Shown: positions 50,690 to 51,312 of the stretch, one piece after another
How the letters are laid out: each line of letters starts with the position of its first letter
How positions within the stretch are numbered: the stretch's first letter is position 1
Sequence record: PQ657772.1
Direction: 5' to 3' (one strand)
DNA length: 64,000 nt
Source: Escherichia phage EC.P1
The notes under the pieces: model-generated
Seen by the model: only the letters and a program-made list of their open reading frames with translations
Database searches by the model: none
What the model was told of the DNA's origin: nothing
Position numbers and translations under genes: made by a program

Positions 50690-51312
50690 ATTATACACGC
50701 TTCGCATGTCTAATTCAACGAAAGTACTATGATTTGTTTTAATTAATATTGACGGGGTTTGCTTGAGCATATTTCATCCCCCCGCAGGGGAAAGAACAAA
50801 AAAAGTTTGACGCTGGTGGCCTTCACATAGTTCATATCACGAATTCTCTTACGAGGCGAAAGCGGGTTGCTCTGTTTCTCTCTATCGCGGTTCTTGTAGC
50901 AACGGTCGTCGGTCTTAAACATCCCGACACATAATACAAATACCATATGACCAGTACTTGTATTTGATTTCACGAATTTTGGACGCAACTATATTGTATA
51001 AATTACGACCGCAAATTTCTCATGAAATCTCCCTTAGATAATTGGTAAGGTGCGATCCTTATATGTCTATCGAGGAACTCTCTTTATCCTATTGGAGTTC
51101 TTTATACAGCCGCATTGCCGTGAGTGGTTCAAACTATGCCATCATCTAACGGGTTTCATTTGCTGTTCGTACTGAAAGGACTACTCATCTACCCTCTACT
51201 TTTCGAGTGGATTAGGCTTTAATCATTTCCATATGGAACCTTTCAGGATTAAAAAAAGGCGACAACATATTCTGCTGTCACCTTACATTATATCATAAAC
51301 TTATGGTCTGTC
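50690..51312. other. about 620-nt non-coding island with elevated G+C
   Basis: No ORF of 60 aa or more except one implausible 81-aa frame; visibly GC-richer than flanking genes; function unknown. Confidence 0.4.

Follow-up and report, generated by a model that had tools for sequence, protein, structure and literature searches.

A gap in the genome of Escherichia phage EC.P1 very probably encodes a large pseudoknotted RNA of a new family carried in several copies by jumbo phages

Two minus-strand genes in a 64,000-nucleotide stretch of Escherichia phage EC.P1 (sequence record PQ657772.1; hereafter the window) are separated by an intergenic gap that almost certainly contains a minus-strand gene for a folded non-coding RNA of a new family. 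The original prediction had described positions 50690 to 51312 as a non-coding island, richer in guanine and cytosine (GC), between two co-oriented genes, and our analysis agreed with it in most respects. No credible open reading frame (ORF) was found in this island, whose GC content is 39.5% as compared with 34.4% for the whole window (96th percentile among windows of equal size), an enrichment that is modest but real, and the GC content of the RNA core is 41%. Both flanking genes lie on the minus strand, as do all large ORFs of the window except one. The proposed end at 51312 was retained and the proposed start was revised: the true intergenic stretch spans 50632 to 51312 (681 nucleotides), the downstream ORF having been called mechanically from a GTG at 50682, while its credible start is the ATG at 50631, which has AGGA ahead of it. 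The longest ORF within the gap comprises 81 amino acids, begins with TTG and is considered unconserved because the indels between homologues are not multiples of three. In addition, iterons and terminal repeats were looked for in the gap, and none were found.

The checks that the original prediction had proposed included covariance against related phages and an Rfam scan; both were carried out, and very strong covariation bears the structured RNA out. A consensus fold of 23 sequences computed with RNAalifold predicted 61 base pairs, and compensatory changes were seen in 29 of these. A curated 92-pair model was counted on 53 sequences, with slid partners and shuffles as controls. Canonical pairing amounted to 92.3% in the model as compared with 38–44% for slid partners and a mean of 73.8% (maximum 75.2%) for shuffles, and changes on both sides were observed in 70 pairs, as compared with 32–43 and a mean of 53 (maximum 59), respectively. 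Similarly, the 46 pairs of the 3' domain, counted on 38 sequences, were 92.7% paired (73.8% in shuffles and 37–42% with slid partners) and showed 321 double-change cells as compared with 86 in shuffles; the observed values were reached in 0 of 500 shuffles. The minimum free energy of the window copy is -139.9 kcal/mol, as compared with -125.2 +/- 6.7 kcal/mol in shuffles (z = -2.2). As judged from these comparisons, the counts show the folded RNA to be the functional product, with a predicted architecture of at least 17 conserved helices and two pseudoknots supported by covariation. The RNA would be about 480 nucleotides long up to the U-run that follows the core and about 535 nucleotides long with the conserved tail included, and, as established by the promoters and by G-U pairs that have been conserved, it is read from the minus strand.

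Of the two pseudoknots, PK1 has seven pairs, which are 99.6% paired across 38 sequences and have changed on both sides in six of seven cases, and PK2 is 100% paired in 38 sequences, with covariation in two of its five pairs (GC/AU and CG/UA). A third pseudoknot-like arrangement is formed by the 3' strand of P1, which lies inside the loop of the three-pair helix P3, and both of these helices covary. The G/C-rich strings quoted in the original prediction fall in real features of this fold; ccccccgcagggg represents the C4/G6 hairpin of the tail, and cgcggttcttgtagcaacggtcgtcggtc covers strands of P12, P13 and PK2. Many invariant unpaired blocks are located between the helices, and those of the junctions and loops include GAUGAG, ACCCGUUAG, CACGGCAAUGCGGC, GAUAGACAUAU, UAAGGGAG, CGACCGUUG and GAUAGnGAGAAAC, as well as AACCCGC, CGUCA and G6AUG. 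Around them, peripheral modules are swapped or moved between copies, and one subfamily is devoid of P11 and PK1; such exchange of peripheral modules around invariant blocks characterises large RNAs that have a tertiary core. Two candidate helices were discarded: the local hairpin P9 (AUUUC/GAAAU), which is only 52% paired and was replaced by the long-range P9', and a closing helix that RNAalifold predicted to join GAUGAG to CUCGUC of the tail, in which variation in either strand is never compensated.

The gap region is 99.5% identical to the corresponding region of the Asteriusvirus jumbo coliphages Ecwhy_1, WPEC5 and fEgEco12 and 93% identical to that of 121Q. Homologues were detected in 61 phage records, each of which has four to five matching places. 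The core of about 470 nucleotides (window positions about 50740–51215) shares 68–76% DNA identity with GAP32, CBB, BF, fHe-Yen9-04, 7t3 and Erwinia phages, and the genes that flank the gap are unalignable in phages of other genera. As the best match in fHe-Yen9-04 and CBB sits at a different locus, beside endonuclease VII and gp46/47, these matches are regarded as paralogues. A search with an invariant 27-nucleotide motif retrieved 26 viral and 27 metagenomic loci, on contigs that are jumbo-phage-sized or fragmentary, together with two bacterial genome contigs, and the tail motif GGGGGATG..CAAAnCnCGTCA retrieved 60 viral loci and exposed more diverged full-length copies. The resulting 60 distinct full-length sequences form 41 clusters at 90% identity and 21 at 80%, with a minimum identity of 52%.

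None of these sequences could be linked to a described RNA. The 4227 models of Rfam 15, which include group I and group II introns, RNase P, GOLLD, ROOL, HEARO, transfer-messenger RNA (tmRNA), 6S RNA and self-cleaving ribozymes, gave no match at the gathering threshold in the whole window; a permissive search of positions 50500–51500 gave three chance matches (E = 5–8), none of them in the RNA core, and at six paralogous loci nothing overlapping the element was found at E <= 1 with permissive filters. The original prediction had seen no convincing transfer RNA (tRNA) cloverleaf, and correctly so, given that ARAGORN reported no tRNA or tmRNA gene in the window. The highly expressed ncRNA001 and ncRNA002 of phage PA5oct, known from RNA sequencing, were considered as homologues and rejected for lack of similarity. 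Literature searches on 121Q, GAP32, CBB, phAPEC6, fEgEco12, Sharanji and large phage RNAs turned up no mention of the element. Because the Rfam 15, ARAGORN and literature searches were all negative, the RNA is treated here as a new family.

The predicted promoter of the RNA has the form GAGACA-N13-TGATATAAT on the minus strand, and its spacing would place the transcription start at about 51281–51279. A related arrangement, G(G/A)(G/A)AC(A/G) or TGAAACG followed after 13 nucleotides by TGnTATAAT, is positioned ahead of every copy. The strict form, G(G/A)GACA-N13-TGnTATAAT, has 18 matches in the near-identical genome of phage TH47, as compared with 0.1 expected, and all 18 are on the coding strand; on this enrichment, the predicted phage-specific promoter class is well supported. 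The strict matches inside the span of the window include those at TH47 positions 43871, 39034, 34920 and 19120. For CBB and GAP32, the TGAAACG form has been described as an RpoD-like but divergent promoter, located mostly upstream of genes for DNA synthesis (PMC5259590). In type-A copies, such as that of the window, the promoter is followed by a terminator hairpin and its U-run, and both this order and compensatory changes in the stem are kept in all type-A orthologues across genera. With a promoter of the phage class, this hairpin and a predicted sigma70-like promoter of the downstream gene, the gap also partly justifies the earlier idea of a regulatory hub.

At the other end, roughly one subfamily in two has a covarying terminator-like hairpin with a U-run behind the core, and the window copy has the run of seven U only. 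The tail beyond it consists of the C4/G6 hairpin, GGAUGAAA and CAAAyCyCGUCA(A/G), in this order. In the hairpin, G6AUG is invariant, and the 5' arm varies between C and U opposite the fixed G run, so that pairing is kept at 96% with G-U wobbles; the hairpin is therefore read on the minus strand. The base after GUCA, though variable, is identical in both CGUCA(A/G) repeats in nearly all copies. The reading frame of the tail is broken by single-nucleotide indels, and short ORFs after UAAGGGAG and after G6AUG were dismissed as not conserved. About 25–40 nucleotides past the tail are AT-rich in the copies that were read, although the genome as a whole is already 66% AT. Downstream of copies other than type A, a leader module was observed that is composed of UGAAUUGAG, a hairpin, CGAAAAUUCUU and a covarying hairpin of 8–9 base pairs (bp), UUGACAUUC-GAA-GAAUGGCAA; this last hairpin stands just ahead of the ribosome-binding site of the next gene, and the module is present even where no co-oriented gene follows. 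The positions of all features are given in Table 1.

Table 1. Features of the RNA locus (window positions) and locations of RNA copies in related genomes
Feature	Position	Strand	Remarks
Upstream coding sequence, 282 amino acids	51313..52161	-	no Pfam match; orthologues precede every type-A copy
Downstream coding sequence, 181 amino acids	50086..50631	-	no Pfam match; orthologues follow every type-A copy
-35-like element GAGACA of RNA promoter	51309..51314	-	overlaps TGA stop (51315..51313) of upstream ORF
Extended -10 element TGATATAAT	51287..51295	-	motif match
Hairpin of 9-12 bp with U7	51251..51284	-	terminator scan; intrinsic terminator of upstream ORF and 5' stem-loop of type-A RNA
Structured RNA core, about 477 nucleotides	50805..51281	-	alignment and covariation per helix
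P1	51246-51239 with 51179-51172	-	covarying
P1a	51238-51235 with 51230-51227	-	
P2	51215-51205 with 51196-51189	-	
P3, 3 bp	51184-51182 with 51171-51169	-	covarying
P4	51166-51162 with 51110-51106	-	
P5	51152-51149 with 51121-51118	-	
P6	51100-51095 with 51080-51075	-	
P7	51061-51057 with 51050-51046	-	
P9', long-range	51029-51020 with 50975-50966	-	from reading of the alignment
P11	50964-50954 with 50943-50933	-	
P12	50928-50924 with 50912-50908	-	
P13	50889-50885 with 50842-50838	-	
P14	50882-50878 with 50862-50858	-	
P15	50855-50853 with 50848-50846	-	
P16, weak	~50822-50809	-	63% paired only
PK1, 5' strand UCAUAU in P11 apical loop	50945..50950	-	pairs with AUAUGA 50837-50832
PK1, 3' strand AUAUGA directly 3' of P13	50832..50837	-	
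PK2, 5' strand GUUGC within invariant CGACCGUUGC	50899..50903	-	pairs with GCAAC 50870-50866
PK2, 3' strand GCAAC in conserved P14 loop AAACAGAGCAACCCG	50866..50870	-	
U7 run after core	50798..50804	-	preceding hairpin absent in window copy
Tail hairpin CCCC-UGC-GGGG, then invariant GGAUGAAA	50772..50790	-	
Conserved tail end GCAAACCCCGUCAA	50749..50762	-	CGUCA(A/G) repeats the motif at 50812-50807
Sigma70-like promoter of downstream gene, TTGAAT-17-TATAAT	50690..50718	-	consensus match only; outside RNA family core
GAP32 copies	~35, 99, 177, 261, 341 kilobases (kb)		
CBB copies	~33, 94, 175, 258, 336 kb		
BF copies	~31, 93, 175, 259, 335 kb		
TH47 copies	49.6, 146.3, 262.2, 345.7 kb		genome of 352,450 bp; contains the window

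The gap ranks second by length among the stretches of the window without an ORF of at least 100 amino acids; others are located at 37737–38408 (672 nucleotides) and at 47275–47843 (569 nucleotides), the latter being very AT-rich, with about 27% GC. Two ORFs of 282 amino acids near the gap were compared as possible paralogues of each other, and this relationship was rejected. A little further along, the orthologues of the gene at 49015–49548 are labelled 'ribonucleotide reductase A' in 121Q and 7t3 and cytidylyltransferase in other genomes. The window product has only weak Pfam matches, which are cytidylyltransferase-like and FAD_syn-like, and in view of these matches and of the calls in other genomes, the ribonucleotide reductase label is probably a mis-annotation.

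The RNA is a multicopy element. Four diverged paralogues are present in the Asteriusvirus genome and five in Mimasvirus, Eneladusvirus and their relatives; within each genome the copies are co-oriented on one strand and 53–116 kb apart, and both the copies and the paralogue types are syntenic across genera, the layout in Yen9-04 being the same as that in GAP32. No protein family common to all RNA loci was found among the neighbours, and at locus B both neighbouring genes are on the strand opposite to the RNA, from which it follows that the RNA cannot be a leader only. A second copy was not found inside the 64-kb window. Window positions 1–5358 correspond to TH47 positions 347092–352450, such that the window spans the end and the start of the TH47 record, and the neighbouring paralogue (TH47 345.4–346.1 kb) lies about 1 kb outside its left edge.

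Copies were also found in bacterial chromosomes. In 2 of 5426 complete E. coli genomes, namely strain LR-29-1 (NZ_AP027515.1, about 3,478,900–3,479,600) and strain EEC_W5, the RNA is present intact (nhmmer E = 1e-130), has a TGTGATATAAT promoter of its own and sits in the same island, which measures about 10 kb and is located between ffs and ybaA. This island contains a tyrosine integrase split by IS3, several hypothetical proteins, a trio of mSLOG-DUF4326, DUF488 and DuOB genes and a resolvase. Three GATC-rich, iteron-like TTATCGATCG repeats are located in a 670-nucleotide non-coding stretch about 400 nucleotides downstream of the island RNA, and the three genes that follow this RNA are co-oriented. 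In the chromosome of Serratia sp. 2723, the RNA directly follows a large serine recombinase, and in a chromosomal metagenome-assembled genome (MAG) of the Enterobacteriaceae it is flanked by thiM and a cI-like S24 repressor; in both cases, the gene that comes next is convergent. The bacterial copies are just 62–78% identical to any phage copy, and they keep 90–92% of the modelled pairs, with 19–25 double compensations relative to the window copy; despite their divergence, they are maintained as RNAs. A decayed remnant, consisting of the terminator and the tail only, occupies the same locus in nine more E. coli genomes, E. coli 97.3 (NZ_CP061758.1) among them. The remnant has a promoter-like TGTGATATAT upstream and is positioned at the ybaA end of a related island, which also carries DUF4326, DUF488 and DuOB. 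Except for the DUF4326 domain, no phage-derived neighbours were found in the islands, and a search of a plasmid collection for the RNA gave no match.

To our knowledge, structured RNAs that are large and have a complex tertiary fold are rare, and nearly all of those characterised are ribozymes, riboswitches or parts of major ribonucleoproteins (RNPs). We propose that the gap is best explained overall by a structured-RNA gene with a free-standing role as an RNP scaffold or ribozyme, a reading to which we assign a probability of about 0.6. Taken by itself, the narrower statement that the RNA is a free-standing, trans-acting scaffold or ribozyme falls slightly below even odds; it is favoured because it accounts best for a fold of such complexity, for the invariant core in all paralogues and for the terminator after the core. 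In such a mechanism, the terminator-like hairpin would set the RNA free in many paralogues and processing would do so in the others, the invariant junction and loop nucleotides would form one common binding or catalytic core, and all paralogues would engage the same partner, the RNA serving during infection as a ribozyme or as the scaffold of an RNP. The copies in bacterial islands might then be carried to exploit or interfere with the step in which this partner takes part, and the conserved core may represent a new ribozyme class.

Several observations weigh against this proposal. The transcript is predicted from sequence, its 5' and 3' ends are putative, and the partner is hypothetical. A trans-acting RNA does not need four to five diverged copies at regular spacing and in one orientation. 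In addition, type-A transcripts would begin with a terminator hairpin, an arrangement not expected of a free RNA that is expressed at a high level. The hairpin that would terminate the RNA is missing in about half of the subfamilies, including the window copy, and the conserved tail lies beyond it, which leaves the 3' end uncertain. Finally, P16 and parts of the 5' domain (P2b and P7) are just 63–80% paired.

The regular spacing in particular suits another explanation, the main rival, which we regard as unlikely overall although it deserves serious weighing and which, as an origin of replication, was among the candidates of the original prediction: transcribed from the phage promoter, the RNA could remain bound to its locus as an origin or primer RNA, its 3' part forming a lasting hybrid with the AT-rich DNA past the tail and serving to prime or license replication. 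A large pseudoknotted 'origin RNA' would then define a new kind of origin, doubtful as this may be, at four to five sites spread at regular distances over a genome of about 350 kb, and, with the same reservation, the islands could be satellite-like elements that copy the origin of a helper for amplification and perhaps packaging by the jumbo phage. Dispersal, spacing, skew and the islands are all best explained in this way, and the fold and the position of the terminator only poorly. The copies are dispersed, co-oriented and regularly spaced in GAP32, CBB, BF, Yen9-04 and TH47, and if five points were placed at random on a circle, all gaps would measure 14.8% of the circumference or more with a calculated probability of about 0.005. 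However, this spacing counts as one observation only, because synteny is conserved, and Asteriusvirus has four copies only, which are less evenly spaced. The coding-strand GC skew of TH47 forms a sawtooth that is at its strongest directly downstream of an RNA locus and weakens over 45–55 kb towards the next; its two largest upward jumps lie 3–4 kb from two of the elements, a third element has a small jump, the fourth is located at a strand switch, and the skew is higher downstream than upstream at 12 of 14 loci. A further skew jump was noted at about 200–205 kb of TH47, where an RNA copy is absent. The skew signal is weak (individual p 0.02–0.3) and post hoc, and boundaries of transcription units fit it equally, so that the pattern is suggestive of replication and transcription boundaries alike.

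The TGAAACG form of the promoter, given its place mostly upstream of DNA-synthesis genes in CBB (PMC5259590), would also suit an origin. So would the single intact copies beside integrases in islands without a recognisable replication gene, and so would the G6 run and the AT-rich stretch after the core. Similarly to ori(uvsY) and ori(34) of T4 and to ColE1 RNA II, a phage or plasmid promoter would drive an intergenic non-coding transcript; T4-type genomes have several origin sites each, and the phages considered here share a T4-like replication and recombination module. ColE1 RNA II is itself structured, about 550 nucleotides long and makes use of a G-run, and according to Kreuzer and Alberts, plasmids with T4 origins reportedly replicate and are packaged upon T4 infection. 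Nevertheless, the transcripts of T4 origins are not conserved structured RNAs, a fold of such complexity is not required by any known origin RNA, and unlike in the T4 and ColE1 systems, a terminator-like hairpin precedes the putative priming region in the present RNA. Iterons, moreover, are absent from the window copy.

Alternatively, the RNA might be a cis-acting element at the head of long gene blocks, working by processive antitermination of the put or EAR kind or as a giant leader, and the islands might use it for phage-induced expression of their cargo; we consider both suggestions improbable. The promoter just upstream and the terminator-like hairpin just downstream of the core recall the HK022 put RNA and the Bacillus EAR element, which likewise are located just downstream of a promoter, upstream of a terminator and at the head of long operons. 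The copies indeed head long co-oriented blocks in which the coding-strand skew is strongest at the beginning, conserved leader hairpins join most copies to the next gene, and three co-oriented genes follow the RNA in the E. coli island. However, known antitermination RNAs are 70–120 nucleotides long, the present RNA being four to seven times their size, the terminator of type-A copies precedes the RNA, and the downstream gene in the window has its own predicted promoter. A cis-regulatory 5' leader or riboswitch was rejected on the grounds that the neighbours of locus B are on the other strand and that convergent genes follow the Serratia and MAG copies; the next gene at locus B is convergent too, and these orientations argue against antitermination as well. 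Roles that we have not thought of take a minor remaining share of the probability.

On the basis of the Rfam and ARAGORN results, synteny and frame-breaking indels, we rejected a tRNA and membership of any known family as well as a decayed gene or mobile element; a known family that was missed, gene decay and the remnant of a mobile element have only a slight chance even when taken together. It is very improbable that a diverged group I intron, RNase P RNA, GOLLD, ROOL, omega-RNA or self-cleaving ribozyme was missed by the models, considering that Rfam gave no match even at E <= 10 on the gap and at E <= 1 on the six paralogous loci and that the element lies between genes, not within one. Brief similarities are all that speaks for this reading: ACAGAGCAACCCGCUU may resemble CR-II and CR-V of RNase P, and GAUGAG, CGAAA and GUC-A may resemble the hammerhead core; a hammerhead-like reading of GAUGAG, CGAAA and GUC was rejected, as the motif order and the core positions are at odds with it and U4 and A6 are not kept. 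A decayed protein-coding gene, which the original prediction had named as the outcome that would speak against it, or a remnant of a mobile element, which it had listed as a candidate, is the least credible of all: the 81-amino-acid TTG ORF and the exchange of peripheral modules between copies could be read in this way, yet the DNA identity of the RNA exceeds that of the flanking genes, the indels ignore the reading frame, which is not conserved across homologues, helix changes are compensatory, terminal inverted repeats and target duplications were not found in the gap, and the positions are syntenic across genera.

A free-standing RNA of this kind would have its closest parallels in GOLLD and ROOL, which are also about 500 nucleotides or longer, highly structured and pseudoknotted, are carried by phages and other mobile DNA, and contain many invariant unpaired nucleotides with no function assigned. 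In contrast to them, the present RNA, to which they show no sequence or structure match in the Rfam scans, occurs in four to five diverged, regularly spaced copies per genome and not in one, is limited to Rak2-like enterobacterial jumbo phages and chromosomal islands, and is not consistently located beside tRNA genes. The pRNA of phi29 is likewise a phage-encoded structured RNA with Watson-Crick contacts between loop and strand, and in principle PK1 could form between molecules; however, pRNA is about 174 nucleotides long, present in a single copy beside the genome end and without sequence similarity to the RNA described here, one subfamily of which has neither P11 nor PK1. A ring of hetero-oligomers joined through PK1 was considered and rejected, as the loop and its partner are complementary within each copy and that subfamily could not take part.

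The novelty of the finding lies in the RNA family, for which comparative support is unusually strong; GOLLD and ROOL are precedents for large phage-borne RNAs of unassigned function. These phage-borne giants are not known to have three features of the present family, namely several diverged copies in each genome, a regular spacing of the copies and their capture by chromosomal islands, which carry genes of conflict systems. As the RNA is carried by the culturable E. coli phages 121Q, PBECO4, phAPEC6 and fEgEco12, the family is directly testable. If the origin explanation were true, the islands would follow a satellite strategy that needs neither replication nor capsid genes. Whatever its function may be, the RNA indicates an unrecognised RNA-based step in the biology of jumbo phages and a new interaction between phages and chromosomal islands.

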